Under the pieces are notes generated by a model that saw nothing but the letters and a program-made list of their open reading frames with translations, made no database searches and had not been told where the DNA came from. The position numbers were made by a program, and so were the translations under genes. DNA of 63,989 nucleotides, counting the filler, from a bacterium (GTDB lineage: Bacteria > UBA9089 > CG2-30-40-21 > SBAY01), in NCBI GenBank assembly GCA_040757115.1. It is 5 parts of 5 records of this genome, joined end to end, with 100 filler letters (N's around TTAATTAATTAA, not from the genome) between each part and the next. Parts side by side here need not be neighbours in the genome. Positions count along the whole stretch, not along the records: positions 1 to 26,595 come from JBFLYA010000030.1; 4 more parts are not named here. One strand, given 5' to 3'. This document shows positions 7,241-34,968 of the stretch, in pieces (positions within the stretch are counted from its first letter, which is position 1; the number at the start of each line of letters is the position of its first letter).

Positions 7241-7347
7241 TTGATACAGGATACAAGATATGTATCTATTCAGTTCTTTTGACAGGTTAGACGGTTTAAG
7301 TTGAGAGCGTTACATAGGGTTTCCAACAATATCCACAGTTTAAGGAA

Positions 7348-7932
7348 TCAGTTTAACATATCCAGTGGACTTTGTACTCCCATCCCACCCTTATTGATAA
7401 CATGTGTATAAATCATGGTCGTGGATACATCCTTATGACCGAGTAATTCTTGCACGGTGCGAATATCATATCCTTTCTCCAGCAGGTGTGTAGCAAAGCT
7501 ATGTCGAAATGTATGAGGGCTGACTGGTTTTGAAAGACCAACGGCACGAGCAGCACTATAGATTGCTCTTTGCAGCCCACTTTCATTGACATGATGCCGA
7601 TGCATCTTGTCACTACGCGGGTCTTTAGATATCTTCTTTGATGGGAAAACATATTGCCAACCCCATTCTTTACCTGCATTAGGATATTTCCGCTCTAACG
7701 CAAAAGGCAGATGTACCTCTCCAACACCATTCTTGAGGTCTTGTTCATGCAATGCCTTAACCCGTTTTAGATGTTCTGATAGCAATGGTTTTAAACTTTC
7801 CGGTAGCATAGTTACTCTATCCTTCATTCCTTTTCCATCTCGCACAATCACTTGATTCCGAGCAAAATCAATATCCTTAACCCGCAAACGAATACATTCC
7901 ATCAATCGTAGTCCACAGCCGTAAATAAGTTT
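7348..7932 (-). pseudogene. intI: Integron integrase, N-terminally truncated
   Basis: [10 protein letters not shown], integron-specific [24 protein letters not shown] insert, [23 protein letters not shown]; upstream part replaced by an element starting at 7934. Confidence 0.9.
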
Positions 7933-7933
7933 C

Positions 7934-8119
7934 CACCTGTGCAATTAGAAATAAAAGGATAATTGATTAAACAGATTACATTTTTTATTGTAAGCGGATT
8001 AAACGGATTGAGCGGATTTTTTTTATTTCTTTTTCCGCTAAATCCGTTAAATCCGCTTACTAAATCCACCCGCTTACTATTAAAAATCTGCTTCCTTAAT
8101 TTTCTACCTGCACAGGTCG
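7934..8119. mobile_element. MITE-like element (CCACCTGTGCAATTAG ... CTACCTGCACAGGTCG) with inverted 9-mer arms
   Basis: Imperfect terminal IRs; related end CTAATCGCACAGGTGG at 45544-45559. Confidence 0.55.
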
Positions 8120-8219
8120 AAAAAATTTATAATGCAGTAAAATAAAAACCGCTAATAGGCAGTATAATCTAAGGATGTTATTTTTCAGTATTTTCTAATT
8201 TTGATATTAAAATTTTTTC

Positions 8220-8248
8220 TTGACAGAATATTTTATTTATGCTACTCT
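8220..8248 (+). promoter_or_regulatory. Putative cassette promoter Pc
   Basis: TTGACA-17 bp-TACTCT with extended -10 TG, directly upstream of attI. Confidence 0.7.
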
Positions 8249-8264
8249 ATAAATAACCCAACTT

Positions 8265-8316
8265 AATAATGCAGTAATATAAAACTGCTAATAGGCAGTA
8301 TAATCTAAGGTTAAGC
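8265..8316 (+). other. Putative attI (crossover G|TTAAGC at 8310/8311)
   Basis: GTTRRRY core at the start of the first cassette, between intI and first attC; partial duplicate at ~8129-8174. Confidence 0.65.
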
Positions 8317-8337
8317 GGCACGCCCGGTGGGCGGGCC

Positions 8338-8419
8338 GCTTAACCCATGCAATGGAGCTGACAAAAATGCGGCATAACAAGTTATGCCGACATTTTTGCA
8401 GCTCATCGCGTCGTTAGCC
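8338..8419 (+). repeat. attC (foreign type, 82 bp)
   Basis: GCTTAAC...GTTAGCC imperfect palindrome. Confidence 0.85.
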
Positions 8420-8452
8420 CGCATATAACAAGGAGCGAGCGATTCAGACAAA

Positions 8453-9085
8453 ATGAATACGATACAGACACTCACTCAACGAGTCCAAAAGACACAACAT
8501 GGGTTTTTGGACATTCAAAAAGCAGCAGATGAAGTAGTAGCTGGGCACGCTGCCAAAGAGAGCCTTTGCATTGTCAAGCAGCTATTCGCTTCAGAGATAT
8601 ACCAAGCACGCTCACTGGCAACCTTCATTTTGGGCCGATTGGCGGCCAACTCGAACGAAAGCCTCGATTTTCTGAAACGGCGTGTCAGCGGAGACAATGA
8701 TTGGCGTGTGCAGGAGATTCTGGCAAAAGCCTTTGACAGGTACTGTGCTGACGTTGGCTATGAACAAGCACTCCCTGTCATCAAGGAATGGTTGGCAGAT
8801 TCCCAACCTAACGTGCGACGGGCAGTCACAGAAGGGCTGAGAATATGGACAGGACGCCCTTACTTTCATGACCATCCAGAAGTTGCCATTCAGTTGTTGA
8901 GCCAGCTTCGAAACGATGAGAGTGAATATGTACGGAAGTCTGTTGGGAATGCTTTGCGTGATATAAGCAAAAAGCACAAGGAGTTAGTAAGAATCGAATT
9001 GCAGCGATGGGACATTGCAAACAAGCGCATTGAGCAAACTCACAAACTGGCAAGTAAGTTCTTGCAAAACAATGGTGCAGGCTAA
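8453..9085 (+). CDS. HEAT-repeat DNA alkylation repair (AlkD-like) protein
   Basis: NVRRAVTEGLRIWT, DESEYVRKSVGNALRDISK; stop codon lies in attC. Confidence 0.8.
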   Translation: MNTIQTLTQRVQKTQHGFLDIQKAADEVVAGHAAKESLCIVKQLFASEIYQARSLATFILGRLAANSNESLDFLKRRVSGDNDWRVQEILAKAFDRYCADVGYEQALPVIKEWLADSQPNVRRAVTEGLRIWTGRPYFHDHPEVAIQLLSQLRNDESEYVRKSVGNALRDISKKHKELVRIELQRWDIANKRIEQTHKLASKFLQNNGAG

Positions 9086-9210
9086 CCCGGCGCTGCACCT
9101 GACTGCGAGGGCTGTGCCGTAATTAGAGTTTTGTGGTATCTCAAGCTTTTATCTTGTTTACAAAGTTTGGTGGTAATCCGCCCCGCAGCAGGTGAGCTCT
9201 ATCGTTAGGC
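9080..9210 (+). repeat. attC (resident ~130 bp family)
   Basis: GGCTAAC...GTTAGGC. Confidence 0.9.
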
Positions 9211-9274
9211 TCTATGAAAGTGCTACTCTACATAATGCTGATTATCATACAAACATACAAAACGAGAAATTAAA

Positions 9275-9541
9275 ATGGATAAATATGAAGAATTAATGAT
9301 AAAAATTCTACGAGGGACATCTGATGCTAATATCCATTTTTCAGAGCTATGTCACTTGTTGAAAAAATTTGGCTTTGATGAACGAATCAAGGGTGACCAT
9401 CATATTTTTACAAAAGATGGTATTGAAGAAATACTGAATTTGCAACCCAAAGGATCAAAGTCTAAACCGTATCAGGTAAAGCAAGTTCGTAATCTCATCC
9501 TTAAATATAAATTGAATTTGGAGGAAGAAGATGTTGGATAA
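9275..9541 (+). CDS. hicA: HicA-family toxin
   Basis: GDHHIF motif, KPYQVKQVR; overlaps hicB. Confidence 0.85.
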   Translation: MDKYEELMIKILRGTSDANIHFSELCHLLKKFGFDERIKGDHHIFTKDGIEEILNLQPKGSKSKPYQVKQVRNLILKYKLNLEEEDVG

Positions 9542-9743
9542 ATATGAAATAATTGTCTATTGGAGCGAGGAAGATGAGGCATTTATTGCTGAGGTACCTG
9601 AATTGCCGGGTTGTATGGCAGATGGCGAGACATATCAAAGAGCCATTTCAAACGCTGAGATTATTATTCAGGAGTGGATTGAGACTGCAAAAGAATTAGG
9701 GCGATTAATTCCACAACCTAAAGGTCGATTAGTATATGCCTAA
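9531..9743 (+). CDS. hicB: HicB-family antitoxin
   Basis: AEVPELPGCMADGET..IPQPKGR. Confidence 0.88.
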   Translation: MLDKYEIIVYWSEEDEAFIAEVPELPGCMADGETYQRAISNAEIIIQEWIETAKELGRLIPQPKGRLVYA

Positions 9744-9869
9744 CAATTCGTTACAGTTGACGGCGGGGGACTGTGCCGTGGTCAAAGTTTTGTGGTCTCT
9801 CAAAGTTTTATCTTGCTATCAAACTTTTGTGGTAATTCTCCCCGCCGCACCTGAACTTTATCGTTAGAA
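9738..9869 (+). repeat. attC
   Basis: GCCTAAC...GTTAGAA. Confidence 0.9.
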
Positions 9870-10105
9870 AACATACAGAGGAACATCCAAGATTGACAAA
9901 GTATCCAATCTGATGAATGGACGGGAGAAAAAACATAAAGGTCTCTACCGGGGTTCAATCCTTGAAAACTGAATAGTTCTTATAAGTTTACTGAAATGAG
10001 ATAGTTGGGCAGGATAGAAGAAAGAAAGAGAAAAAACGGCGAAGAAGTGAAAAAATCGGTGAAGGATAAGAGCCGCTAACAAAAATATTGGGAGGTTGAT
10101 TTCAA

Positions 10106-10345
10106 ATGGTTCAGGTTAGTGTAGATGAAATAAAACAAGATATATCGGTTTATCTTCCGTGTGTAGAAGTTGGAGAGACAGTTGTTATTATGAAGGAAGG
10201 TAAACCTCTGGCAGAATTCAAACCTGTTACTTCGACTTCTAAACGGCTACGACCCTTTGGATTATGCAGTGGAGAATTTATTGTGCCAAATGACTTTGAT
10301 GCTCCATTGCCAGAAAGTATCATTCAGGAGTTTGAAGGACAATGA
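10106..10345 (+). CDS. Phd/YefM-like antitoxin
   Basis: GETVVI..GKPLAE..RPFGL..VPNDFDAPLP. Confidence 0.8.
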   Translation: MVQVSVDEIKQDISVYLPCVEVGETVVIMKEGKPLAEFKPVTSTSKRLRPFGLCSGEFIVPNDFDAPLPESIIQEFEGQ

Positions 10346-10740
10346 AACTACTTTTGGATACCCATATCTTTCTCTGGTTCATTAGCGGGGACAAACGATT
10401 ACCAGAAGGTATGCGAGATACCATTCGTGATCCTAATAACGAAGTCTACTTGAGTGTTGTGTCGCTATGGGAAGCGATCGTTAAATACCAGATAGGTAAA
10501 CTTTCCTTGCCTCAACCACCAAATGTCTATTTACCAATCCAACGCCAAAAACACCAAATAGATAGTTTATCTCTGGATGAAGCCAGTGTGTCTCAACTTG
10601 CTAATCTTGCTAAAATTCACCATGACCCATTTGATCGTATGCTGATTTGTCAAGCAATGGAACACGGTTTAACAATTGTTAGAGTAGATGATACCATTTG
10701 TAATTATTCTGTTTCTGTTCTAAACCGCATCTTAAAGTAG
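10342..10740 (+). CDS. vapC: VapC/PIN toxin
   Basis: LLLDTHIFLW, SLWE, HHDPFDRMLICQA. Confidence 0.9.
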   Translation: MKLLLDTHIFLWFISGDKRLPEGMRDTIRDPNNEVYLSVVSLWEAIVKYQIGKLSLPQPPNVYLPIQRQKHQIDSLSLDEASVSQLANLAKIHHDPFDRMLICQAMEHGLTIVRVDDTICNYSVSVLNRILK

Positions 10741-10903
10741 ACTTAAATCTGATTTTGATGATGTTTTGCTTATGAATTTGGGTGTTATCTGGTTTCTGGA
10801 TAACATCCCAAATGGGGAGATATGAAGGGCAAACCATGAATGTGGAATGCACAATAATTCGGTGAGGCAGAGGAAAAGGAAAAGACAGCGAATCAAAGCT
10901 TTT

Positions 10904-11035
10904 GTCTAACCCTGCATTGCAGTTGACGGCGGGGGACTCTGCCGTGGTCAAAGTTTTGTGGTCTCTCAAAGTTTTATCTTGCTATCAAACTTTTGTGGTA
11001 ATTCTCCCCGCCGCACCTGAACTTTATCGTTAAGC
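10904..11035 (+). repeat. attC
   Basis: GTCTAAC...GTTAAGC. Confidence 0.9.
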
Positions 11036-11098
11036 GGCACGCCCGAGGAGGGAGCAGATGAAAAAAATAGAAGAGATTGAGCAGATATTAAAAGATAA

Positions 11099-11266
11099 GG
11101 TAGGGAGTAGGGTCGGGTAGGGAGTAGGGTCGNNNNNNNNNNNNNNNNNNNNNNNNNNNNNNNNNNNNNNNNNNNNNNNNNNNNNNNNNNNNNNNNNNNN
11201 NNNNNNNNNNNNNNNNNNNNNNNNNNNNNNNNGGTAGGGAGTAGGGTCGGGTAGGGAGTAGGGTCG
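11099..11266 (+). repeat. G-rich 17-bp tandem repeat GGTAGGGAGTAGGGTCG spanning a scaffold gap
   Basis: Two units visible on each side of the N run. Confidence 0.8.
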
Positions 11267-11350
11267 CATCTTGAATTGTGAATTGGTATTCTGAAATAAG
11301 ATACTTTAGCCAGCAAGGAGAAAAGAAAAAAGACGGCAGTGTGCAGCTTT

Positions 11351-11486
11351 TTCTAACCATTCGCTGCACCTGACTGCGAGGGGCTGTGGCGTGATTGAAA
11401 TAGTTTTGTGCTTTATCAAAGTTTTAACCTAGTTATAAAGTTTAGTGGTAATTTCCCCTCGCAGCAGGTGAGCTCAATCGTTAGCC
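11351..11486 (+). repeat. attC
   Basis: TTCTAAC...GTTAGCC. Confidence 0.9.
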
Positions 11487-11572
11487 GGATACCAACTTAC
11501 TATTTATGCTTAAGAAGAAAACTGGACTATGCTATCACAGAATTTGAACTTGTTGATTGAATGAGGTGGACG

Positions 11573-11782
11573 ATGAATGCTATAGAATTTCAAACCACAG
11601 TCAAGAACAATATCATTGAGATTCCTCACAGATACCTCAGCAATCTCACGAAGCGCGTGCGTGTGATCTTGCTGGTTGAAGGAAACAAACCTGCTGTGAA
11701 TTTCATTGATGAATTACTTGCACATCCTGTGCAAGTAAAAGGTTTTCGTTCTTTAACGAGAGAAGAAGTCTATGCCAGATAA
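11573..11782 (+). CDS. Putative antitoxin upstream of PIN toxin
   Basis: MNAIEFQTTVKNNIIEIP..LTREEVYAR; overlaps PIN gene. Confidence 0.7.
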   Translation: MNAIEFQTTVKNNIIEIPHRYLSNLTKRVRVILLVEGNKPAVNFIDELLAHPVQVKGFRSLTREEVYAR

Positions 11783-12200
11783 CGAACGCACAACTTGCTT
11801 CATTGATACGAATATCTGGCTATATGCCTTTATCGAAGGGGATGACTCAACCAAATCGGGAATAGCACGCGCGCTGATTCAAGAAACGGCACCTATGCTT
11901 AGTACACAGGTGATCAACGAAGTATGTGTCAACTTGCTGAAGCAAGCCAACTTTACCGAAGAACAAGTATGCCAACTCATCGAGTCGTTCTATGAGAAAT
12001 ACGTCGTTACTGAGTTAAACAAGTCAGTGCTATTGACTGCGTCGCAACTTCGCCAGCAGTATTCCTTGTCCTTTTGGGACAGCACGATTATAGCAAGTGC
12101 ACTCAGTGTGGGTGTTCCCATTCTATATTCCGAAGACTTGCAAGAGGGATTAATTATTGAAAGGCGACTTAAGGTGCTCAATCCATTCGGACAGAGATAG
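11772..12200 (+). CDS. PIN-domain toxin
   Basis: FIDTNIWLY, STQVINE, SFWDSTII, LYSEDLQ. Confidence 0.88.
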   Translation: MPDNERTTCFIDTNIWLYAFIEGDDSTKSGIARALIQETAPMLSTQVINEVCVNLLKQANFTEEQVCQLIESFYEKYVVTELNKSVLLTASQLRQQYSLSFWDSTIIASALSVGVPILYSEDLQEGLIIERRLKVLNPFGQR

Positions 12201-12292
12201 TTGGAGATATTTTACGGTCAAACCGTGAATGTGGAATGCACAATAATTTGGTGAGGCAGAGGAAAAGGAAAAGACAGCGAATCAAAGCTTTT

Positions 12293-12424
12293 GTCTAACC
12301 CTGCGTTGCAGTTGACGGCGGGGGACTGTGCCGTGGTCAGAGTTTTGTGGTCTCTCAAAGTTTTATCTTGCTATCAAACTTTTGTGGTAATTCTCCCCGC
12401 CGCACCTGAACTTTATCGTTAGAC
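12293..12424 (+). repeat. attC
   Basis: GTCTAAC...GTTAGAC. Confidence 0.9.
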
Positions 12425-12497
12425 ATAAGGTGGAGCGTATTATCGCGAATATCAAATCGAGATATCCACATTCCATAGAAATGAAAGGGAAAGGTCA

Positions 12498-12782
12498 ATG
12501 CATATCATTACTCGAAAACGGTTGAATGAATTTGCAGAGAAACATCCTGATGCCAAGTTGGTTCTTCAACATTGGTATGGTTTGATGAAATCGGGACGGT
12601 TTCGTTCGTTTCCAGAATTGCGTGCAGTCTTTCAGGACGCTGACCAGATAGGAAAATTGACCGTTTTTAATATTGGCCGCAAAGTGCGTCTAATTGCAGC
12701 TATCCATTACAATCGACAGAAGGTTTACATTCGTGCTGTATTAACGCACGACGAGTATAATAAAGGCTTATGGAAGGAGTAA
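12498..12782 (+). CDS. higB: HigB-family toxin
   Basis: MHIITRKRLNEF..TVFNIG..RLIAAIHY..LTHDEY. Confidence 0.88.
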   Translation: MHIITRKRLNEFAEKHPDAKLVLQHWYGLMKSGRFRSFPELRAVFQDADQIGKLTVFNIGRKVRLIAAIHYNRQKVYIRAVLTHDEYNKGLWKE

Positions 12783-12785
12783 CCC

Positions 12786-13013
12786 ATGATGGTAGAAGTA
12801 CAAACAGCGGAACGCGTCTGGCCAACACTCGCACCAGTCGTATTTGCTCCGCATACGGAGAGTGAATATCAACGACTTGTGGCTTTACTTGATGCTTTGA
12901 TTGATGTGGTAGGTGAGAATGAAAGTCATCCCCTATCCTCGTTGATGGAAGTGATTGGTGTGCTGATTGAAAAGTATGAGGACGAACATGTCCCAGAACT
13001 GACAGAGATATAG
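12786..13013 (+). CDS. Short HigA-like antitoxin (N-terminal domain only)
   Basis: EYQRLVALLDALID..HPLSSLMEVIGVLIEKYE; no HTH follows. Confidence 0.75.
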   Translation: MMVEVQTAERVWPTLAPVVFAPHTESEYQRLVALLDALIDVVGENESHPLSSLMEVIGVLIEKYEDEHVPELTEI

Positions 13014-13046
13014 CCATTGAATCATTTGTAGAGAATAGCAAGAGAA

Positions 13047-13178
13047 TTCTAACCAGTCGTTGCATCGGACGGCGGGGGAGCTAACCACTTCTCAAAGTTT
13101 TGTGGTTGACCAAAGTTTTGTTGTGTATATAAAGTTTAGTGGCAATTCTCCCCGCCGCCGCTGAACTCAGCGTTAGAC
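13047..13178 (+). repeat. attC
   Basis: TTCTAAC...GTTAGAC. Confidence 0.88.
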
Positions 13179-13220
13179 AAATAGAATATTAACACTCAAG
13201 ATGAATTGGTAAAATGAAAT

Positions 13221-13517
13221 ATGTTATTATTTGAGTGGGATCCAAGAAAAGCAATTAAGAATATAAATGTCCATGGTATATCTTTTGATGAAGCCAGCAC
13301 AACTTTTAGCGATACACTATCATTAACAATCTATGATCCGTTACATTCTGAGCAAGAAGACAGATTTATTTTAATTGGGAATTCACTTAAACATCGTGTG
13401 TTAGTAACTGTTCATACAGAAAGAGGGGATAAAATTAGAATAATAAGCTCGAGAAAGGCAACAGAAAATGAAAGGAGACAATATGAAGAGAATGCAAAAA
13501 GATCGGGATATGCTTGA
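13221..13517 (+). CDS. brnT: BrnT-family toxin
   Basis: FEWDPRK..HGISFDEA..EDRF..IRIISSRKATENER. Confidence 0.9.
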   Translation: MLLFEWDPRKAIKNINVHGISFDEASTTFSDTLSLTIYDPLHSEQEDRFILIGNSLKHRVLVTVHTERGDKIRIISSRKATENERRQYEENAKRSGYA

Positions 13518-13692
13518 AGAATATGATTTCAGCAAAGGTATTCAGGGAAAATACGTAAAAAAATACTGCGAAGGGACAAATGTTGTAGTTATTGATACTG
13601 ATGTTATCAAATTTTTCCCTGACCATGAATCTGTAAATCAAGCATTAAGATCATTAATTGATATTATTAAGAGACAAAAACAATATGCTTAA
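13483..13692 (+). CDS. BrnA-like antitoxin
   Basis: DMLEEYDFSKGIQGKY..FPDHESVNQALR. Confidence 0.8.
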   Translation: MKRMQKDRDMLEEYDFSKGIQGKYVKKYCEGTNVVVIDTDVIKFFPDHESVNQALRSLIDIIKRQKQYA

Positions 13693-13818
13693 TCACTCGC
13701 TGCACCTGACTACGGGGGGCTGTGCCGTAATTAGAGTTTTGTGGTATCTCAAGCTTTTATCTTGTTTACAAAGTTTGGTGGCAATTCTCCCTGCCGCCGC
13801 TGAACTCAATTGGTAGAA
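13687..13818 (+). repeat. attC, degenerate cores
   Basis: Resident-family body with GCTTAAT and GGTAGAA ends. Confidence 0.8.
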
Positions 13819-13828
13819 CTAAAATATT

Positions 13829-14350
13829 ATGGGATACAATCTGTATCTGGTAAAAAAAGAAAATTGGTTTGATAAGGAGAATGTATTTACCCAAACCGAA
13901 TGGGAAGATATTCAAAAATATCAGATATCGAATTGGCTTTATTTTGATGAAGGGACAATTACAATTAAAAATCCTTCGAAAGAACAAGTAATAGATTTTG
14001 TCAAGATGGCAAAAAGATATAATTGGTTCGTTCAAGGCGACGATGGCGAAAAATATTCAGAAGATGGCTCGCCTATTTATGAGAAACCTAAAAAATCTGG
14101 ACTATTTGGGGGAATTAGATATCTTATATCAGAGTTATTGGCAAAAAAGAAAATCGAACATTCAATGAAAAGTGTAACTTGCCCTTTTAAAGTCGGAGAT
14201 AAAGTAAAAACGACACACAGAACGGGTGGTGTTGTTATTGACATAGATCCAAAAGCAAATCATGGCTTAGGCAGTATCAAGGTAAAGTTTCCTGATGGAG
14301 TTGTCTTAGGGGGAACTTTTATTGCTCACGGTTTTGAAAAAGAGTTCTAA
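13829..14350 (+). CDS. Hypothetical cassette protein
   Basis: ORF fills the cassette; stop codon in attC. Confidence 0.7.
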   Translation: MGYNLYLVKKENWFDKENVFTQTEWEDIQKYQISNWLYFDEGTITIKNPSKEQVIDFVKMAKRYNWFVQGDDGEKYSEDGSPIYEKPKKSGLFGGIRYLISELLAKKKIEHSMKSVTCPFKVGDKVKTTHRTGGVVIDIDPKANHGLGSIKVKFPDGVVLGGTFIAHGFEKEF

Positions 14351-14405
14351 CAACTCGCTGCAGCCGACATAGCTTACGCTCGGTGGCTGAGCTCGGTCGT
14401 TAGGT
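14345..14405 (+). repeat. attC (short foreign type, 61 bp)
   Basis: TTCTAAC..GCAGCCGAC..CGGTGGCTGAGC..GTTAGGT. Confidence 0.85.
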
Positions 14406-14426
14406 CTGAAAAATTGGAGGATAGTC

Positions 14427-14642
14427 ATGAATACATTGACATATGATAATTTAATTGACACTGTAAAATCATTATCAATTGAAGAAAAAGAGGAACTTAA
14501 ATTTTTGATGGAGAGGTATCTTATAGAGGAACGGAGAGAAGAAATCTATAAAAATTATCAAAATAGCTTGAAAGAAGCTGAAAAAGGGAAGTTAGAATTT
14601 TCAAGTAATGTCCGCAAACTAAGGAAAATGGTAGAAAAGTGA
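14427..14642 (+). CDS. Putative antitoxin
   Basis: Small acidic ORF overlapping a RelE-like gene. Confidence 0.7.
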   Translation: MNTLTYDNLIDTVKSLSIEEKEELKFLMERYLIEERREEIYKNYQNSLKEAEKGKLEFSSNVRKLRKMVEK

Positions 14643-14908
14643 TAGAAATCAGTTTTAGTTCTTCTTTTAAAAGAGCGTATAAGAAAAGGATTAAATGGTC
14701 TGATGAGTTAGAACGGAAATTTTGGGAAAGAGTAGAGATGTTTACAAAAGCTCCTTTTGATAGAATTTTGAAGACACACAAGTTATCAGGAAGACTACAA
14801 GAATTATGGAGTTTTAGTATTGAATACGATGTCCGGGTAATATTTTATTTTGCTGATAGGAATAGGGTGGTATTTGTAGATATAGGAAAACATGATGAAG
14901 TTTATTGA
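14639..14908 (+). CDS. RelE/YafQ-superfamily toxin
   Basis: SSFKRAYKK..LKTHKLSG..WSFSIEYDVRVIF..DIGKHDEVY. Confidence 0.85.
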   Translation: MIEISFSSSFKRAYKKRIKWSDELERKFWERVEMFTKAPFDRILKTHKLSGRLQELWSFSIEYDVRVIFYFADRNRVVFVDIGKHDEVY

Positions 14909-15040
14909 CCTAACAATTCGTTGCAGCGGACGGCGGGGGACTGTGCTGTAATTGAGAGTTTTGTAGTATATCAATAGGTAATCGTGCTTACAAAGTTTGG
15001 TGGCAATTCTCCCTGCCGCCGCTGAACTCAATTGTTAGGC
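14908..15040 (+). repeat. attC
   Basis: ACCTAAC...GTTAGGC. Confidence 0.9.
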
Positions 15041-15057
15041 AGATAGGAGACAACGGG

Positions 15058-15312
15058 ATGATACCCATACAATGTAAGAAATGCGGACATATTCAAGATG
15101 CTGGGAGTACCTTGTCACCCAATGACACCTGTGAACGATGCGGTACACCCATCTACGGACCCAGAGCTCACAATCCAACAACTATGGCAATTCTCGCCGT
15201 AGTAACAGTGATTGGTGCCGCGATACTGGGTATGCCCAAGAACTTCCTGCTCATAGTCGGTATCTTGGCTGCCTTCTTGGTGATCAACGCAGTCATAAGG
15301 CGAAAGAGGTGA
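15058..15312 (+). CDS. Zinc-ribbon + 2TM small protein
   Basis: CKKCGH..CERCG followed by hydrophobic helices. Confidence 0.6.
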   Translation: MIPIQCKKCGHIQDAGSTLSPNDTCERCGTPIYGPRAHNPTTMAILAVVTVIGAAILGMPKNFLLIVGILAAFLVINAVIRRKR

Positions 15313-15315
15313 GAC

Positions 15316-15672
15316 ATGGGGACAGTCGTATTTCTCGTCGCCATTATAGTCGGTGCTGTGATATCCGCAATCTTTTACTGGCTTTTCCCCTTTGAGCCGC
15401 CTATTCAGAAGTGCGAAACATGCTTTCACCAAATGCAGGTCCTTAAGTTCACAGGCAGAGGTGGAGTGATGCTTTTGCGGGAAGAAATGGTCTCCGGCAT
15501 CGGCTATGCGGAACAATGTTGGGAGTGTGGCAGGGTGTATTGTGCCGAGTGCTATCCTTCGCGTCCGCGGAACACTTGTGTTTGCGGACGGGGGAGGGAC
15601 GCTGTGCGTCATATCGGAGGCACAGTCTATCGAGGTTCATTACGGCTTGTGAAAGTCCGATACATCAATTAA
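15316..15672 (+). CDS. TM-anchored Cys-rich protein
   Basis: N-terminal TM; CETC, CWECGRVYCAEC, CVC. Confidence 0.6.
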   Translation: MGTVVFLVAIIVGAVISAIFYWLFPFEPPIQKCETCFHQMQVLKFTGRGGVMLLREEMVSGIGYAEQCWECGRVYCAECYPSRPRNTCVCGRGRDAVRHIGGTVYRGSLRLVKVRYIN

Positions 15673-15761
15673 AGGAGATATTAGGGTCAAACCGTGAATG
15701 TGGAATGCACAATAATTTGGTGAGGCAGAGGAAAAGGAAAAGACAGCGAATCAAAGCTTTT

Positions 15762-15893
15762 GTCTAACCCTGCGTTGCAGTTGACGGCGGGGGACTGTGC
15801 CGTGATTGAAAGTTTTATAGTATCTCAAAGGTTAATCGTGCGGACAAAGTTTGGTGGTAATCCTCTCCGCCACCGCTGAACTCAGTGTTAGAC
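15762..15893 (+). repeat. attC
   Basis: GTCTAAC...GTTAGAC. Confidence 0.9.
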
Positions 15894-15948
15894 TAAAAGA
15901 GATTAAACCACGAACGACCCACAAGTGGGTACCCCGGAAGAACACGAA

Positions 15949-16054
15949 GTGAAATTTGATGAAATATCTAATAAAGTTAGCAAATATTAAAGTTGGCTTG
16001 TTGATAAATTTCAATGTAGAAAGTTTGAAAAAAGGCATAAAAAGATTTGTCTTG
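15949..16054 (+). pseudogene. Internally deleted GxxExxY-family gene
   Basis: MKFDEISNKV joined out of frame to KLANIKVGLLINFNVESLKKGIKRFVL; flanked by CACGAA / CTTCGTG inverted arms. Confidence 0.7.
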
Positions 16055-16443
16055 TCCAATCTTCGTGACCTTCGTGCTCTTCGTGATGAATAGTTACATA
16101 AATCTTTTTATTATCTCTAAAATATAAAAGTATTATACCAGACCTTGATTATGTAGAAATAAGAAGAAAAGACGGCGAAGTGGAATTTTTACTTAATCAA
16201 TCGCTGATCCTGACCGTAATACGTCAGTTATTTGGGGGAATGAACATTAACCTGCGGAGGACAGAGCAATGAAAATAGTAGGCAAGTAGGTAGTAGGGAA
16301 GTAGGAAAGGGATAAAGGATGTGCACGGTATTCCTCTTCTGGGGGCAATGTCTCCCCCTTTCCTACTTTCCTACTCTCCTACTTCCTACTTTCAGGAGAA
16401 TCCCCCATTTCAGTGACGCATTACTCCTGACCGATTTTTTCAC

Positions 16444-16472
16444 TTGACAACAAATATCAACAATGATACTAT
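16444..16472 (+). promoter_or_regulatory. Sigma70 promoter of second hicAB
   Basis: TTGACA-17 bp-TACTAT, 6 nt before the ATG. Confidence 0.65.
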
Positions 16473-16478
16473 ATTTAC

Positions 16479-16739
16479 ATGGCAAAGGTTGAAGAAATTA
16501 TTACCCGTATGAAGCGGAATCCTAACGATATCCGATTCAGTGAGTTGTGCAAGGTATGTAATTACTACTTTGGAAAATCTCGTCAGAGTAGTAGTAGTCA
16601 CCGAGTATATAAAACTCCATGGCAAGGTAATCCACGGATTAACATACAAAATAATAAAGGAAAAGCTAAAACATACCAAATAAAACAGGTCATTTTAGCT
16701 ATTGAAAGATTGGAGGTAGAACATGGCCATAAAAAATGA
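16479..16739 (+). CDS. HicA-like toxin
   Basis: NPNDIRFSEL..SSHRVYKTPWQGNPRINIQ..KAKTYQIKQV. Confidence 0.8.
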   Translation: MAKVEEIITRMKRNPNDIRFSELCKVCNYYFGKSRQSSSSHRVYKTPWQGNPRINIQNNKGKAKTYQIKQVILAIERLEVEHGHKK

Positions 16740-17139
16740 TCGTTATACCTATCGAGTAACATGGTCAGAGGATGATAATGAATATGTTGGTTTATGTATA
16801 GAGTTTCCAGGTTTGAGTTGGCTTGCTAAAACTTCTGAAGATGCCTTAAAAGGGATACAGAGATTAGTTGCTGATGTTATAAAAGATATGTTTGAAAATG
16901 GTGAAACTATACCTAATGCAATATCCTGTAAACAGTATAGTGGTAAATTTATGGTACGCGTCCCACCTGAAGTTCATCGGAAGCTTGCAATTAAGGCGGC
17001 AGAATCAGGAGTCAGTTTAAATCGGTTTGCCAGTTCAAAATTAAGTCAAGGAGTTGAATTGAAATCAGACTTTGGTTATGGAATACAGGAAAAATTAGGA
17101 AGGAAGGAAAAAAGACGGCGAAGTGGAATTTTTACTTAA
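16723..17139 (+). CDS. hicB: HicB antitoxin (RHH), C-terminus extended into attC tail
   Basis: EFPGLSW..YSGKFMVRVPPEVHRKLA..GVSLN. Confidence 0.85.
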   Translation: MAIKNDRYTYRVTWSEDDNEYVGLCIEFPGLSWLAKTSEDALKGIQRLVADVIKDMFENGETIPNAISCKQYSGKFMVRVPPEVHRKLAIKAAESGVSLNRFASSKLSQGVELKSDFGYGIQEKLGRKEKRRRSGIFT

Positions 17140-17266
17140 TCAGTCGTTGCAGCGGACGGCGAGGGACTGTGCCGTGATTGAAAGTTTTGTAGTATCTCAA
17201 GGGATAATCATGCGGACAAAGTTTAGTGGCAATCCTCCCCGCCGCACCTGAACTTTATCGTTAGAC
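17134..17266 (+). repeat. attC
   Basis: ACTTAAT...GTTAGAC. Confidence 0.85.
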
Positions 17267-17306
17267 GTATACCACTGGAAGAAAAATGATCTTTAGGAGG
17301 GCTTAA

Positions 17307-18029
17307 GTGAGTTCATTGTTGATTGGAGTAATTGCTTCTTTAATTTCTACTATCATAGGTTACTTAATAGCTAAGGCAGTTCAATATTTGAGAGAATTAA
17401 GACCACTCCAAAAAACTTGGCAGTTTAGAAAGGATGAGCAAATTTGTGTTTTTATAGCGAGTCCTGGAGAAATAGATACAGGTGTCTATAAAAAGAGAAT
17501 TACTACTTTAGGCCATATTTATGGTTTTGCTTATATTTTAAATTCTATTAAAAAGGGATATCCCAATTTAGAAATTAATCATCTATATTTCACCCGAGAC
17601 TCAAAAACCGATAATTTCTCTTCCGAACTCCTTGGGTCAACTGGTATTTGTTTAGGAGGACATAAACATAATTGGGTAACAAAATTATTCCTTGAAGAGA
17701 TACATCCACCAGTTGTGTTCGATGAAAACGATAACTTAATAGACTTACTGAATAAAAAAATATATAAACCTAAAGTAGAAGACGATAGAATATTAGAAGA
17801 TTATGGAATAATTATCAAAACAGTAAATCCCAATAACAGAAGGAACAAGGTCTTCATATTTGCAGGTTGTCATACTTACGGGGTTATTGCTGCAGCCAAA
17901 TTCTTCTACGAAAATCTCCCTAAAATGGAAATAGTTAAGTACAACCAATTCGAAGTTATAGTAAGTGGGAAGGTTATAGGTTCTCATGTATATCAGTTAA
18001 ATAAAATAGACCAGCATATAATAGATTGA
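17307..18029 (+). CDS. N-terminal TM protein with uncharacterised alpha/beta domain
   Basis: RBS AGGAGG; TM helix; ICLGGxxxN, DYGIIIKxxNP, VFIFAGxHxYG. Confidence 0.7.
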   Translation: MSSLLIGVIASLISTIIGYLIAKAVQYLRELRPLQKTWQFRKDEQICVFIASPGEIDTGVYKKRITTLGHIYGFAYILNSIKKGYPNLEINHLYFTRDSKTDNFSSELLGSTGICLGGHKHNWVTKLFLEEIHPPVVFDENDNLIDLLNKKIYKPKVEDDRILEDYGIIIKTVNPNNRRNKVFIFAGCHTYGVIAAAKFFYENLPKMEIVKYNQFEVIVSGKVIGSHVYQLNKIDQHIID

Positions 18030-18041
18030 GGGAGGTTATTA

Positions 18042-18752
18042 ATGGAAAAAGTTATATTATTTGATATTGGAAAAACTTTAATTGATGGAGATGCTATTAT
18101 TAATGGAGCGTTAGAACACTCTGCTAAGAAATTGAAAAAGTTAAAATTCATCGATGATGAGGAAAAATTTATTATAGCCTATTTAGAGGCAGACAAAGAT
18201 ACTACTTTTGCCCATATACATCATACTTACTCAGATTTTGAAATAATAAAAAAAGCATGGAAAAATCTTGGTCGTGAGGATAACTACAAAGTTTATGCTA
18301 ATTTTCTCCTTGAATATAGAAATTATGTAAGGAGCAAAATTAAACCTGATTCAAAGATTTTAAAAACATTCCAACATTTACAGAATAAGAAGATGTTGCT
18401 TGGAATTGCTTCAGATGGTACTATCGTAGAACAGTTAGAAACTCTTGTGCGATTAAGAATAATTTCATATTTAGAACCCAACTTAATTTTCGTGTCTGAA
18501 GATATTGGAGTTGAAAAAACCAATAAAGATTTCTATAAATATATTCTCCAAAAGAATGGTAATCCAAATAGAAGAATGGTTATAGTTGGAGATAGACTTG
18601 AAGCTGATATTCTTATACCAAAGCAATTAGGATTTAAAACAGTGCTGGTTCTCAAATATGCAAAATATATAGAAGAAAAAATTAAATATGTAAACCCTGA
18701 TTTTGTAATAAATGACATTCCTGAGATGGAAAGAATTGCTGATTTAATATGA
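18042..18752 (+). CDS. HAD-family hydrolase
   Basis: ILFDIGKTLID, SDG, EK, VGDRLEADI. Confidence 0.85.
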   Translation: MEKVILFDIGKTLIDGDAIINGALEHSAKKLKKLKFIDDEEKFIIAYLEADKDTTFAHIHHTYSDFEIIKKAWKNLGREDNYKVYANFLLEYRNYVRSKIKPDSKILKTFQHLQNKKMLLGIASDGTIVEQLETLVRLRIISYLEPNLIFVSEDIGVEKTNKDFYKYILQKNGNPNRRMVIVGDRLEADILIPKQLGFKTVLVLKYAKYIEEKIKYVNPDFVINDIPEMERIADLI

Positions 18753-18836
18753 GATTTGAGTTATATGGCGTCTAACAAAAAAATGAACCAGACGAGGATA
18801 GTGACGGGGTCGGATAGTGCCGGGGTCAGACCTCGA

Positions 18837-19089
18837 GTGAGTGTTGACAAGAAAAACTACATTTTGTTTGACGATGAACAAATTTTAGTGTATGTATAAC
18901 TCTATTAAAATAAAGCAATTAAGAAATTAGGTATAAACTTACATGGAGTATTCACTAATTCATATCATAAGATTTTGATCATAAATGAAAAAGTGGAGTA
19001 TCTTTACATCTATATTCAATCTATTGTTTTTCAATGGGTTATGCAATATTCATCAAATTATATAGATGAAAAGATTTGTCAACACTCAC
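18837..19089. mobile_element. MITE with GTGAGTGTTGACAA terminal IRs, flanked by TCGA
   Basis: Perfect IR at 18833-18850 and 19076-19093; AT-rich non-coding interior. Confidence 0.75.
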
Positions 19090-19125
19090 TCGAAAGCAGA
19101 ATTAACTCAGCAAAATGCAGCTTTT

Positions 19126-19257
19126 GTCTAACCAATCGCTGCACCTGACTGCGGGGGGCTGTGCCGTTTTCAATGTTTTGTGGTATCTCAAGCTTTTATC
19201 TTGTTTACAAAGTTTGGTGGTAGTCCTCCCCGCAGCAGGTGAGCTCTATCGTTGTGC
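19126..19257 (+). repeat. attC
   Basis: GTCTAAC...GTTGTGC. Confidence 0.9.
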
Positions 19258-19276
19258 GGAAGGAGGTTGAAAGAAA

Positions 19277-20506
19277 ATGCGAGGATTTCATACCGCTGTA
19301 ACACTTTTCCTGGTAATTCTGGCCGCAATACCACGCGTGTTCTCTGCAGAGGCGCCCTCTGCTGATCTAAAGGCCGTTGTCAATGGTAATACCCAGTTTG
19401 CGCTTGATTTGTATTCAAAGTTGAAAGAGACGACGGAAGCCAATCTCTTTTTCTCTCCGTACAGTATCTCGGTCGCACTGGCCATGACTTATGGCGGTGC
19501 ACGAGGCAACACGGCAAAGGAGATGGAAAATAGTCTGCATTTCACACTTAAAGAAAAAACCCATCTGGCATTTGCTGAACTGGACACGAGGCTTGACGAA
19601 GTACAGAGGAAAAGGAAAGTGCAATTGCACATTGCGAATTCCCTTTGGCCTCAAAAGGACTACCGTTTTCTTCCTGAATACATCTCGTTGATAAAGCAGC
19701 ACTACGGAGTCTCCATCACACCATTGGACTACACCAAAGCAGTGGAGGAAGCTTGTAGGATCATCAACAAATGGGTTGAAGATGAGACAAAGGAGAAGAT
19801 CAAAGACCTTATTCGTAAAGGCGGTCTGAATCCTCTAGTCCGTCTCGTCTTGGTCAACGCTATTTATTTCAAAGGAGACTGGGCCAGTCAATTCGATCCA
19901 AAACAAACAGCCAACATCAACTTCACCTTATTAAACGGCGAGAAGAAGCGAGTTCCTATGATGCAGCAGAAAGGTAAGTTCAGATACCGGGAGATAGAAA
20001 AGGCTCAATTGTTGGAGTTGCCCTATATTGGCAAGCAATTATCAATGATAATTCTTCTCCCACAGGACCCAAATGGCCTTTCCGATATTGAGAATCAATT
20101 GTCAGAAAGGAAACTCGATTCTTGGTTTTCCAACCTTACTGAGGAGGAAGTCAAGGTTTACCTACCTAAGTTCAAAATAACTTGGGGTACATTTGAACTG
20201 AACGATCAGCTCAAAGCATTGGGTATGCGAGATGCTTTCGTTTTTAGCCGGGCTGACTTCTCTGGCATGGATGGCACGAAAGATCTGTATATCAGTTTGG
20301 TCCTTCATAAAGCCTTCGTTGAAGTCAATGAAGAGGGTACTGAGGCAGCCGCAGCCACAGCTGTGACTATGAAGGTAGGAGGTCGTCTTCCTAGAATACG
20401 AACCTTCAAAGCAGATCACCCATTTGTTTTTTTCATCCGTGACAATACCACAGGAAGTATTTTGTTTCTCGGTAGAGTAGTCGACCCAAGCAAAAAAGAA
20501 GAATAA
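19277..20506 (+). CDS. Secreted serpin (inhibitory type)
   Basis: Signal peptide, NLFFSPYSI, LVNAIYFKGDW, hinge EEGTEAAAATAV, FKADHPFVF. Confidence 0.95.
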   Translation: MRGFHTAVTLFLVILAAIPRVFSAEAPSADLKAVVNGNTQFALDLYSKLKETTEANLFFSPYSISVALAMTYGGARGNTAKEMENSLHFTLKEKTHLAFAELDTRLDEVQRKRKVQLHIANSLWPQKDYRFLPEYISLIKQHYGVSITPLDYTKAVEEACRIINKWVEDETKEKIKDLIRKGGLNPLVRLVLVNAIYFKGDWASQFDPKQTANINFTLLNGEKKRVPMMQQKGKFRYREIEKAQLLELPYIGKQLSMIILLPQDPNGLSDIENQLSERKLDSWFSNLTEEEVKVYLPKFKITWGTFELNDQLKALGMRDAFVFSRADFSGMDGTKDLYISLVLHKAFVEVNEEGTEAAAATAVTMKVGGRLPRIRTFKADHPFVFFIRDNTTGSILFLGRVVDPSKKEE

Positions 20507-20511
20507 TGACC

Positions 20512-20644
20512 GCACAACAAATCGTTGCAGCGGACGGCGGGGGACTGTACCGTGATTGAAAGTTTTGTAATATCTCAATGGATAATCGTGTTTACAAAGT
20601 TTAGTGGTAATCCTCCCCGCCGCCGCTGAACTTTGTCGTTAGAA
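20512..20644 (+). repeat. attC
   Basis: GCACAAC...GTTAGAA. Confidence 0.9.
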
Positions 20645-20738
20645 TGAAAAAATAATCATACAAAGTCACAAAGAAATTGAATAAAAAGAATAAATCTTTG
20701 TGTACTTTGAGGCTTTGTGTGAGGATATAAAAGAAAAA

Positions 20739-20874
20739 TTCTAACCCTTCGCTGCACCTGACTGCGAGGGGCTGTGGCGTGATTGAGATAGTTTTGTAGT
20801 TTACCAGAGTTTTATCTTGCTTATGAAAGTTTGGTGGTAATTCTCCCCGCCGCATCTGAACTTTATCGTTAGAC
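20739..20874 (+). repeat. attC
   Basis: TTCTAAC...GTTAGAC. Confidence 0.9.
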
Positions 20875-21062
20875 AGGCTGGGCAGACAAGAAGAAGGATG
20901 AGTTATTCCTGTTGGAAGTTTTGGTGAGAATATTTGCTCCTTTAGTGGACTATACCAGGACTGCGAGATTGATGCTTTCCTGAAAGAGTTGCTTATTCCT
21001 TAGAAGCAACAGGGGGAGGCTAAGAGGGGCTACTGAAAGGTGATAGTTAAGTAAGATAGAGG

Positions 21063-21429
21063 GTAACTATTCAGCATACCAAGCAAGTAGGAAGTAGGAA
21101 GTAGGAAAGTAGGAAGTAGGAAGAGGGGAAAATACTTCATACTATTTTACTCTTAATTGATTTGATTAAACCTATAAGCATCCTACTCACTTCTTCAGAT
21201 ATATCCCAAATGGATTGAAAATCTGGCAGATAATTAAGATCTTTAGATAGAATTAGATAATACCTTTCTTACTTTCCTACTCTCCTACTTCCTACTTTCA
21301 GGAGGAAATAGTAGGCAAGTAGGTAGTAGGAAAGGGATAAAGGATGTGCACGGTATTCCTCTTCTGGGGACAATGTCTCCCCTTTCCTACTTCCCTACTC
21401 TCCTACTTTCCTACAGGCTGAATAGTTAC
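21063..21429. mobile_element. MITE with GTAACTATTCAG TIRs, 8-bp TSD GATAGAGG, GTAGGAA arrays and four-helix-bundle relic
   Basis: TSD at 21055-21062 and 21430-21437; near-identical copy at 40653-41122. Confidence 0.9.
21137..21265 (-). pseudogene. C-terminal relic of four-helix-bundle (23S-IVP/Avd-like) protein
   Basis: RYYLILSKDLNYLPDFQSIWDISEEVSRMLIGLIKSIKSKIV*. Confidence 0.7.
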
Positions 21430-21471
21430 GATAGAGGAAGTAAAAAGAAAGAGACGGCGAAGTGCAGCTTT

Positions 21472-21603
21472 TTCTAACCCTTCGCTGCACCTGACTGCGG
21501 GGGACTGTGCCGTGGTCAGAGTTTTGTGGTCTCTCAAAGTTTTATCTTGCTATCAAACTTTTGTGGTAATTCTCCCCGCCGCACCTGAACTTTATCGTTA
21601 GCT
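21472..21603 (+). repeat. attC
   Basis: TTCTAAC...GTTAGCT. Confidence 0.9.
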
Positions 21604-21739
21604 CGCATAAATAGTTCAGAGGAAAACTTTTTGATTGACAGAGAGTAAAATTCTCGCTAAAATACTTTCAGAGGGAACAAAAATGGGTATAACAGTCAAA
21701 ACACTCAAAAAGCAAATTTCTATCAGTTGAAGGTGTAGA

Positions 21740-26470: not shown

Positions 26471-26695
26471 ATCACCTATTTCGAACCGATAGTTATTCCC
26501 ACTTTTTTCCCTGGTCACTTGAACTGAAAGTCTAAGGAGTGGTTGTTCAGCCAGGAGACTTTGGGGTTAACTCCTTTGCTTTTAAGTTTCTCTTCNNNNN
26601 NNNNNNNNNNNNNNNNNNNNNNNNNNNNNNNNNNNNNNNTTAATTAATTAANNNNNNNNNNNNNNNNNNNNNNNNNNNNNNNNNNNNNNNNNNNN

Positions 26696-30486: not shown

Positions 30487-31074
30487 ACTATTAAACCTTT
30501 AGGATATAAAATTTCTTGTTTTATTATCCTTTTAATATTTTCTCTAACACCCATTTCATCGTATACGAACATACTTGAAGCAAATGGTTTGTCGTAAATA
30601 AGATTACTGATAATTCCTAAATTTACAGAACAGACTAAAGCATATAGAGTTAAAGATTAGGTCAAATGAAAATGCTCAACTATTGAGGAACAAGAGTATA
30701 ACCATTTATAAATAAAGTAGTTGTAATTCTTTGNNNNNNNNNNNNNNNNNNNNNNNNNNNNNNNNNNNNNNNNNNNNTTAATTAATTAANNNNNNNNNNN
30801 NNNNNNNNNNNNNNNNNNNNNNNNNNNNNNNNNATAATTAATTTTTTAATTTTATTTTCAACCCCCACCCCCCAATCTTGGGGGCTTTAATAAGGAATTA
30901 GGATTGTGGCATTCAAAATGACCAACAATATATATTATACGAGGACGATGAAAATAAAGGAAGGATGCGGGCGGGGATGCTGAAGTCGAACAACGCAGGC
31001 TAAAGCTTGCGGCTACCAGCCTTCCCGAGTCCCGAACCCCGAGTCCCGAGTCCCGATTTTCAGGAGAGAGACTA

Positions 31075-34787: not shown

Positions 34788-34968
34788 NNNNNNNNNNNNN
34801 NNNNNNNNNNNNNNNNNNNNNNNNNNNNNNNTTAATTAATTAANNNNNNNNNNNNNNNNNNNNNNNNNNNNNNNNNNNNNNNNNNNNTTTGAGAAATAAT
34901 CCCAAAGGCTAATCCGGCTACAAACCAGCGAACTACTTTCATCCTTTCTCACCTCCTTAAGAAAAAAG

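Follow-up and report, generated by a model that had tools for sequence, protein, structure and literature searches.

The mechanism by which integron cassettes are generated is treated as unknown in at least one account (PMC8352920), and one proposal for their formation is based on group IIC-attC introns, a model in which, in outline, the order gene, hairpin, attC is predicted as the footprint of the joining event (PMC3001079). Cassettes lacking genes are known from large chromosomal integrons; for instance, those of the Vibrionaceae superintegron have been tested for promoter activity (PMC11014356). Fused cassettes, resulting from the partial or total loss of an attC site, are described as rare (PMC4670013). 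Here, a chromosomal integron with a truncated intI and approximately 16 cassettes is described from a 63,989 nt stretch of DNA (the window), joined from five records of a bacterial genome assembly (GCA_040757115.1), in which the attC sites of three cassettes are each preceded by a copy of the same ~90 nt element, termed tail A. The reading favoured in this work, with moderate confidence, is that tail A is the content of an amplified gene-less cassette, which has been fused to the cassettes upstream of it through the loss of attC sites.

The tail resembles the gene-less superintegron cassettes in being a short non-coding payload between attC or attI sites, present in multiple copies in a large chromosomal array. 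It differs from them in being tied to one attC subtype, built of a host arm similar to a repetitive extragenic palindrome (REP) together with a purine box, conserved across genera with different attC sites, and fused behind many genes. As in the fused cassettes already described (PMC4670013), a gene lying upstream, its own attC lost, is mobilised with that of the next cassette, and intermediates with partial attC sites are present; unlike the rare examples from class 1 integrons, at least 20 upstream contexts here share one downstream partner. In species-specific attC repeats of the Vibrio cholerae repeat type (PMC8352920), highly similar sites are found within one host, the repeat apparently being made or kept within the lineage, as is the case here, although the conserved repeat at this locus reaches ~90 nt upstream of R''. 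To our knowledge, this upstream stretch is not part of the usual definition of an attC, and a small literature search found neither a published report of a conserved element preceding attC nor a paper linking integrons with Desantisbacteria. New here are a conserved pre-attC element that is tied to attC subtypes and incorporates an arm of a host repeat, the occurrence of this element in uncultured groundwater lineages, and the scale of both the amplification and the fusions.

The 22-mer core of tail A has three matches in the window, all on the + strand (10838, 12227 and 15696), and none in 100 shuffles; the copies around them start at 10816, 12203 and 15674, can be aligned over 88-90 nt and differ almost exclusively in their first ~20 nt and at one T/C position. 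Upstream of copy 1 (10816-10903) are, in order, the gene for a PIN toxin, an R''-like box that has decayed and a 75 nt non-coding module, X (10741-10815, + strand), which lies between the stop codon of the PIN gene and the tail. Copy 2 (12203-12292) begins 2 nt after the stop codon of a PIN toxin open reading frame (ORF; 11772-12200), and copy 3 (15674-15761) 1 nt after that of an ORF (15316-15672) encoding a 118 aa protein with no Pfam match. Behind each tail, on the same strand, is an attC with the R'' sequence GTCTAAC and the spacer CCTGC: that of copy 1 (10904-11035) has R' GTTAAGC, that of copy 2 (12293-12424) has R' GTTAGAC, and that of copy 3 (15762-15893) combines the 5' half found in copies 1 and 2 with the 3' half of another subtype. 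Hence the whole ~132 nt attC is common to copies 1 and 2, while copy 3 matches over only the first ~50 nt; as the integrase crossover is at R', this mosaic must stem from homologous exchange between attC sites. The exact core matches, the alignment and the shared R'' bear out the preliminary description of this DNA, which had placed the same tail before the same attC subtype at these three positions and, in two of them, 1-2 nt after the stop codons of unrelated genes, now identified as those of the PIN toxin and the Pfam-less ORF.

Tail and attC are a single repeat unit of approximately 220 bp. The main comparison genome was the nearest relative, G001 (770 contigs, sharing 24% of sampled words with the window), which gave at least 40 tail matches, and 30 match-carrying contigs were analysed. 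BLAST identified 45 tail matches (42 in G001, three in the window) and 89 long attC sites, with the tail adjoining an attC within 3 nt in 35 of the 45, and in three further, diverged tails when their unaligned ends are counted. The remaining seven comprise two tails interrupted by an insert with inverted repeats at its ends, one lying 97 nt from its attC and four with no attC detected, one of them at a contig end. In the two split tails (L045, G001 contig C769, 8934-9225 and 10723-10960) the break falls at one and the same position, and the insert, which lies between the inverted repeats GTAAGCGTTCAG ... CTGAACGCTTAC, seems to carry the remnant of a small gene of the four-helix-bundle type, with AAGACAGCG duplicated at its flanks; the same contig also has module X with a tail after a MazF-like gene.

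In each of the 20 tail A copies for which an attC could be scored, R''-CCTG(C/T)-(G/A)TTGCAGTTGACG is present with the same L'' side, such that tail and attC do behave as one module behind many unrelated genes, as had been proposed. Only two tail-less attC sites share this 5' half, and the first two bases of their R'' differ; similarly, a second large subfamily of the purine box is tied to TTCTAAC followed by GCTGCACCTGAC. Across 24 full copies, the ~65 nt tail core and the attC 5' half show only 0-2 variant copies per column, and the 6 nt patch just before R'', the attC centre and the attC 3' half are much more variable. Variants of this patch go with attC variants (CAATGC with CCTGTG, for example), and tail and attC therefore diversify together as subfamilies.

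Such linked variation, along with the mosaic structure that copy 3 shares with several G001 copies (the same tail and attC 5' half joined to another 3' half) and the presence of older, diverged tail-family elements on other cassettes, might also be expected were these 3' regions old and subject to concerted evolution, being homogenised and shuffled by recombination or gene conversion among ~220 bp repeats. This is a rather unlikely account of the whole, as conversion requires homology on the left side, which unrelated genes do not offer, and as it leaves unexplained the tail-only cassettes, the attC remnants and the matched ends of element-free cassettes described below.

The gene and tail cassettes are chimeras, combining their own 5' ends with the R'' of another cassette. 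In the window, the 5' ends of the tail-bearing cassettes are GTTAGAA, GTTAGCC and GTTAGGC, each one base away from GTTAGAC, the complement of R'' GTCTAAC, whereas the tail-less pairs at 8413/9080, 9204/9738, 14399/14908 and 19251/20512 are perfect complements, in agreement with the earlier observation of mismatched and matched ends. The comparison was extended to 70 cassettes with both boundaries present, which were scored for a perfect match of the 5' TTRRRY to their own R''. Matches were found in 24 of the 39 lacking any tail-family element, including the rare pairs GTTGTGC/GCACAAC and GTTAGGT/ACCTAAC, compared to five of 19 with tail A and one of 12 with other tail-family elements. Because GTTAGAC constitutes 23 of the 70 5' ends, giving a chance expectation of ~33% for tail A, the five matches among its 19 cassettes are at the level of chance. 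The difference between cassettes without and with any element, pooled, has a Fisher p value of 0.0006, which is overstated as the copies are related to one another. The attC calls came from scripts written for this analysis, and two cassettes that carry an element (C760-3199 and C769-9269) were scored as having none; the BLAST-based screen misses short attC sites, and a fold-based finder, which produces false positives inside genes, was used only for these short sites and with strict boxes.

These mismatched ends also bear on whether the tail might be a small non-autonomous mobile element, similar to a miniature inverted-repeat transposable element (MITE) and perhaps moved by an IS110 transposase, that inserts just 5' of certain R'' boxes. 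The constant right junction, the REP-like arm, the IS110-family transposases adjoining tails at two loci, the use of the arm as an insertion hot spot and the existence of two unoccupied attC sites of the same subtype would all suit such an element. However, the R'' behind the tail is almost always GTCTAAC and mismatches the 5' end of the cassette, indicating that the tail brings its own R'' and attC 5' half, and tail subfamilies co-vary with attC subtype. Furthermore, neither terminal inverted repeats nor target duplications were found at 20 distinct junctions, and the left end is ragged, making this origin very improbable. The insertions into the arm are a 60 nt insert on contig C423 and, on contig C212 (L060, ~10506-10840), a MITE-like element of ~330 nt with 14 nt terminal inverted repeats (GTGAGTGTTGNCAA) and a TTGA duplication, one end of which also occurs in the window just before the attC at 19126 (~19020-19105). 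The transposases beside tails (DEDD_Tnp_IS110 and Transposase_20) are encoded at 10870-11952 on the + strand of L060 and at 9412-10437 on the - strand of L079, where foreign sequence starts immediately after R''. This last arrangement is reminiscent of IS1111-type elements, which target attC sites.

The junctions between genes and tails indicate how the chimeras may have arisen. The same tail partner is joined to no fewer than 20 different upstream contexts (17 in G001 and three in the window), with unrelated genes ending 0-30 nt before it, and in three contexts remnants of an attC lie between gene and tail: on contig C259 a purine box, R'' TTCTAAC and 5 nt precede the tail; on C494 the last 11 nt of an attC are followed by the tail from position ~14; and on C532 there is a purine box without R'' before the tail. 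By virtue of these remnants the three have the makeup of fused cassettes, as does a site at ~10076 in the window, where a purine box and an R''-like GCTAAC (10020-10080, + strand) have no attC behind them and run directly into the next gene, apparently through a fusion of cassettes within that of copy 1. Truncated attC sites are also found at ~16191 in the window and on contigs C262 (R'' and 14 nt), C67 and C397 (the first 73-84 nt) and C769 (the last 49 nt). No attC remnant is visible at copies 2 and 3, where we infer fusion.

Homologues of the tail-bearing genes were informative at three of the junctions. The PIN toxin preceding copy 1 has a homologue in G001 of 82% identity, lacking a tail, in which the TAA stop codon lies inside R'' GTCTAAC; the window gene instead has on its 3' side the decayed R''-like ATCTTAA, the 75 nt module and the tail. 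Similarly, the tail-bearing genes of C769 and C259 have homologues (43% and 34-39% identity) in tail-less cassettes. For the genes of copies 2 and 3, searches of the five family genomes (G001-G005) found one weak, partial match of 43% to the PIN toxin and none to the 118 aa protein. The remnants and the tail-less homologues together argue that the tail-bearing genes were ordinary cassettes first, and gained tail and attC when their own attC was lost. The remnants of earlier attC sites likewise argue for fusion over joining of the group IIC-attC type: while the gene, hairpin, attC order resembles the footprint that model predicts, no group II intron is among the Rfam matches in 7000-23000 of the window, and the tail is half a palindrome attached to a purine tract.

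The preliminary description had gone further than noting the shared tail, interpreting it as the footprint of cassette neoformation or attC replacement. The second of these is upheld by the chimeric cassettes with ends matched at chance level, and the first is not supported, in view of the gene-less cassettes, the three attC remnants and the three tail-less homologues. It had also named a scenario that would undermine this interpretation, in which the tail is the 3' end of a formerly multicopy cassette and the junctions are random deletion endpoints; this nearly holds, except that the endpoints are not random, clustering instead at the bases of palindromes. Left endpoints are concentrated at tail positions 1-15, reaching as far as 30 and 43, and often fall in the A-rich stretch immediately after a hairpin module. 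Their proximity to palindromes, whether attC or hairpin, would fit deletions guided by such structures.

The possibility that tail and attC are attached de novo to the 3' ends of genes to make new cassettes, through insertion at secondary sites or a route involving RNA and reverse transcription, draws on a different set of junctions. In at least six contexts (window 12203 and 15674, C375, C470, C769_8858 and C193_4855), the stop codon lies 0-6 nt before GGAGATAT, inside TTA(A/G) and with no attC remnant, several having a TTA(A/G)(A/G) box that resembles the 3' part of R'. The unmatched ends of tail-bearing cassettes are also compatible with attachment; the repeat that makes up the 5' part of the tail is confined to the host family, meaning that the module was assembled in this lineage; and in a second genus (G002) the same architecture of arm and box is kept at 75-78% identity before a different attC of ~50 nt, three of the four attC sites in its small array carrying the element. 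In addition, a multi-gene stretch of 10.6 kb closes with an HpcH/HpaI aldolase gene that has a tail and attC behind it.

Set against this are the attC remnants between gene and tail, the ordinary-cassette homologues of three tail-bearing genes with R'' boxes of their own, and the existence of the tail in free gene-less cassettes; nor was any group II intron or other RNA family found by Rfam in 7000-23000. The 10.6 kb stretch (L059, C423, 6020-16629) holds a gene for an IS91-type transposase and lies between two attC sites, and upstream of the lone tail and attC of C212 are a gene whose own attC has decayed, together with a MITE and an IS110 transposase. De novo attachment is consequently possible but unlikely. 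The C423 stretch, which ends in the tail containing the 60 nt insert in its repeat arm, also encodes an alpha-amylase, a GlcNAc-2-epimerase-like protein, a DJ-1/PfpI protein and an ankyrin protein.

Gene-less forms of the tail are present in G001. Two cassettes consist of the tail only: on C627, R' GTTAGAA is followed by two bases and the tail, and on C45 a short attC ending in GTTAGGC is followed by two bases and the tail. A further 15 copies have the same palindromic hairpin module of ~100 nt before the tail, the module itself occurring in the window as a gene-less cassette (20644-20738, + strand) with the matched ends GTTAGAA/TTCTAAC. In the 10 copies with upstream sequence present, hairpin and tail sit behind an R' or an attI-like sequence, and they begin with GTTAGAC in most copies, matching their own R'', and with GTTAGAA in two. 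On three contigs (C67, C673 and C375) they are located directly behind sequence homologous to the attI of the window, the position at which newly integrated cassettes are expected. Both tail-only cassettes and the hairpin and tail cassettes are bounded by crossover sites on both sides and contain no conserved ORF; the three tail copies of the window are not themselves free cassettes.

The population of the window is represented by the contigs of a metagenome, run X1, in which 88% of the words sampled from the window are found; the runs covered were three DNA contig sets of a single groundwater study. In run X1, contigs pass from R' (12418-12424) straight into the tail at 15674, 15680, 15681 or 15695, and from other attC ends into it at 15690. 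As the sides of these joints span just 20-31 nt, they hint at, but do not prove, tail-only cassettes that start raggedly in this population; joints of R' directly to another R'' are also present and would be empty cassettes. Single-copy flanks have contig depths of ~364-388, compared with ~97,000 summed over tail/attC bins (~270-fold for tail words), and one tail position occurs on 14 contigs with a summed depth of 103,558, although such summed depths are a rough figure and not copy numbers. The real number of tail copies is probably of the order of 10^2, with the assembled copies a small part of it.

Taken as an amplified gene-less cassette, the tail would have a history of several steps. The source cassette would have had the 5' end TTAGAC, a tail of ~88 nt and an attC of the CCTGC subtype, with no gene, the tail having been assembled from local material, namely a family-wide REP-like arm and a purine box. 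The integrase would then have multiplied this cassette, either alone or fused to the gene-less hairpin module, to the tens of copies assembled and probably ~100 in reality. In arrays that are decaying, with intI truncated and many attC sites cut short, the attC between a gene cassette and a tail cassette downstream of it would be lost, probably by a palindrome-promoted deletion, such that the gene keeps its own 5' end and inherits the tail and its attC. Fusion through attC loss would explain the 0-30 nt spacing between gene and tail, the clustering of junctions in the first ~15 nt and the mismatched ends.

Besides the overstated significance and the attC scoring described above, several points weigh against this history. 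The 5' ends of both tail-only cassettes (GTTAGAA and GTTAGGC) mismatch R'' GTCTAAC, and these could be gene and tail cassettes that have lost the gene, and hence products of the fusions instead of their source. The tidy junctions at TTA(A/G) are neater than independent random deletions would predict; this box could derive from an R'' of the (A/G)CTTAAT type, such as those at 13687 and 17134, or equally from an R' box, and if the latter, insertion of the tail cassette would have taken place at a secondary site downstream of the gene, a form of the attachment originally proposed. Likewise, three separate fusions in the small array of G002 are not parsimonious. Counts from G001 are lower bounds, as the assembly of 770 contigs breaks at tail and attC repeats, and amplification by the integrase, the mechanism of deletion and any function are all things that we infer from sequence.

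The neat junctions and the conservation between genera would find a use in a related scheme, in which tail and attC form the unit of cassette manufacture, an extended attC module that is copied and joined to gene 3' ends, with the gene-less copies as its donor pool or by-products. On this scheme, which is on balance quite doubtful, the module would be made of a host repeat arm and a polypurine tract, and its joining to genes would have left three footprints: tidy junctions behind stop codons, ends that do not match and conservation between genera.

The tail is built of two parts, a 5' repeat arm of ~25 nt and a 3' purine box of ~45 nt. The former (GGGTCAAACCGTGAATGTGGAATGCAC) matches the arm of a palindromic REP-like repeat, an intergenic palindrome presumably of the REP or bacterial interspersed mosaic element (BIME) type, a complete example of which, with an arm of the same sequence family, is found outside the integron at 60960-61025. 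As with REP/BIME palindromes, this arm recurs in all of the five family genomes, with 8-50 occurrences in each, often as inverted pairs ~30 nt apart (a reversed control pattern had 0), yet matches to the tail are wholly missing from two of the five. Unlike those repeats, the tail has the left arm only and is not itself a REP hairpin: the full palindrome is at the window position given above and paired matches are present in G003-G005, but no right arm for that of the tail could be found by eye beyond the attC.

The 3' part of the tail is purine-rich and ends in the motif AAGAC(A/G)GCGAA. Variants of arm and box precede attC sites of other subtypes, complete ones at 11351, 17134 and 21472 and truncated ones at ~10076 and ~16191, and occur in G001 as well. 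All on the + strand, these variants include a diverged element with repeat arm and purine box at 11263-11350, before the attC at 11351-11486; another at 17063-17133, before the attC at 17134-17266; a tail-family element at 16138-16215, after which come R'' ACTTAAT and an attC cut down to ~20 nt; and a purine box variant at 21430-21471, before the attC at 21472. In collections of genome and metagenome contigs, from which records near the window may have been left out, the exact A-type pattern had 0 matches and a looser tail-family pattern matched six metagenome contigs and four genome contigs, the latter including contigs titled as metagenome-assembled genomes of Nitrospirota and Candidatus Desantisbacteria.

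Regarding function, the tail is most likely a primary-sequence cis element, and neither a structured RNA nor a coding sequence. RNAalifold predicted 0 pairs common to 18 diverse family members, individual tails folded with z-scores of -0.3 to -1.95, and the Rfam scan of 7000-23000 had no match over the tails at E <= 1. The reading frame is not conserved, with indels before R'' between subfamilies and different ORFs across the tail among copies; a small basic peptide or read-through extension was rejected as an explanation, since the frame relative to the stop codon in R'' shifts between subfamilies. A likeness between the tail and the attI region was similarly discarded, its local score of 16 being equalled by 512 of 1000 shuffles. 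The most conserved parts are tandem heptamers of the TGAAT type and the purine box, and constraint is argued from the tail varying less than either the patch next to it or the attC 3' half, and from its being kept across genera. The tail may serve as a site for protein binding and move together with the attC, and, more speculatively, such a cis element aiding recombination or expression would also explain the multiplication of the cassette.

A simple scan listed no promoter-like site within a window tail, the nearest being minus-strand hexamers at 15653-15624 that end ~20 nt before copy 3, and no terminator-like site in or next to these tails; the numbers of both types of site equalled those in shuffles. 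Elsewhere, in G002 and two other records, a module of ~95 nt with a near-consensus promoter (TTGACT, 18 nt, TATAAT) lies directly upstream of the tail. At the four loci (L070 7690-7850, L069 ~10330-10490, L071 and L079 8640-8792) the upstream flanks are unrelated, and homology starts ~95 nt upstream of the tail and stops at R''. As the predicted start is close to the first bases of the tail, transcription in these cases would proceed through it towards the attC. At one of these loci the module heads an array of four cassettes, with no integrase seen nearby.

The array of the window is located beside the C-terminal 198 aa of an integron integrase (7348-7944, - strand; Phage_integrase, E 1e-36), the N-terminal part of which has been replaced by an insert bounded by inverted repeats (~7930-8110). 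These repeats start with CCACCTGTGC, and on contig C397 of G001 (L009/L051) an end of this kind truncates an attC after 73 nt. An attI-like sequence (8268-8315, + strand) ends in GTTAAGC (~8309), and its relatives in G001 have hairpin and tail cassettes directly behind them. Between 8338 and 21600 there are 15 long attC sites (~130 nt), one short site (14344-14406) and one of ~83 nt (8338-8419), all on the + strand; they are imperfect palindromes of the form RYYYAAC...GTTRRRY in a single orientation beside the integrase fragment. Toxin-antitoxin cassettes are abundant, encoding HicAB, two PIN toxins, HigB, BrnT and a YafQ-like toxin, and further products include a DNA-alkylation-repair protein, a HAD hydrolase and a serpin, the last (19277-20506) having 409 aa, a Pfam Serpin match of E 2.5e-126 and the unusual matched ends GTTGTGC/GCACAAC.

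Other repeats are found among these cassettes. The first cassette after attI (8309-8419) is a mini-cassette with ~25 nt of content and the perfect ends GTTAAGC/GCTTAAC, the start of which (GTTAAGCGGCACGCCCG) is found again where the cassette downstream of tail copy 1 begins (11029-11045). A tandem array with a ~16 nt unit, GGTAGGGAGTAGGGTC, extends over 11080-11260, broken by a gap of 100 N, and short tandem duplications related to it lie at the 5' edge of several tails (C481, C88, C627 and C44). A second palindromic repeat, with CCTAC-rich arms around GGGGACAATGTCTCCCC, is present in cassettes at 16285-16400 and 21380-21440 and on contig C570 (L061), where an inverted copy cuts a tail at position ~79 to leave it without an attC. 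Pairs of 44-N runs with 12 bases between them, at 26596-26695, 30734-30833, 34788-34887 and 61284-61383, look like masked repeats rather than assembly gaps.

In these genomes, the DNA travelling with the attC is ~90 nt longer than the attC itself. It includes a tail that is better conserved between genera than is the attC and is partly a repeat specific to the host family. The tail also provides a countable marker for attC-proximal DNA, by which native cassettes can be told from chimeric ones and the frequency of attC loss followed. Even on an ordinary reading, the scale is unusual, with an estimated ~100 copies and at least 20 fused upstream contexts, which points to a cassette that is selfish or to a cis element by which recombination or expression is aided.

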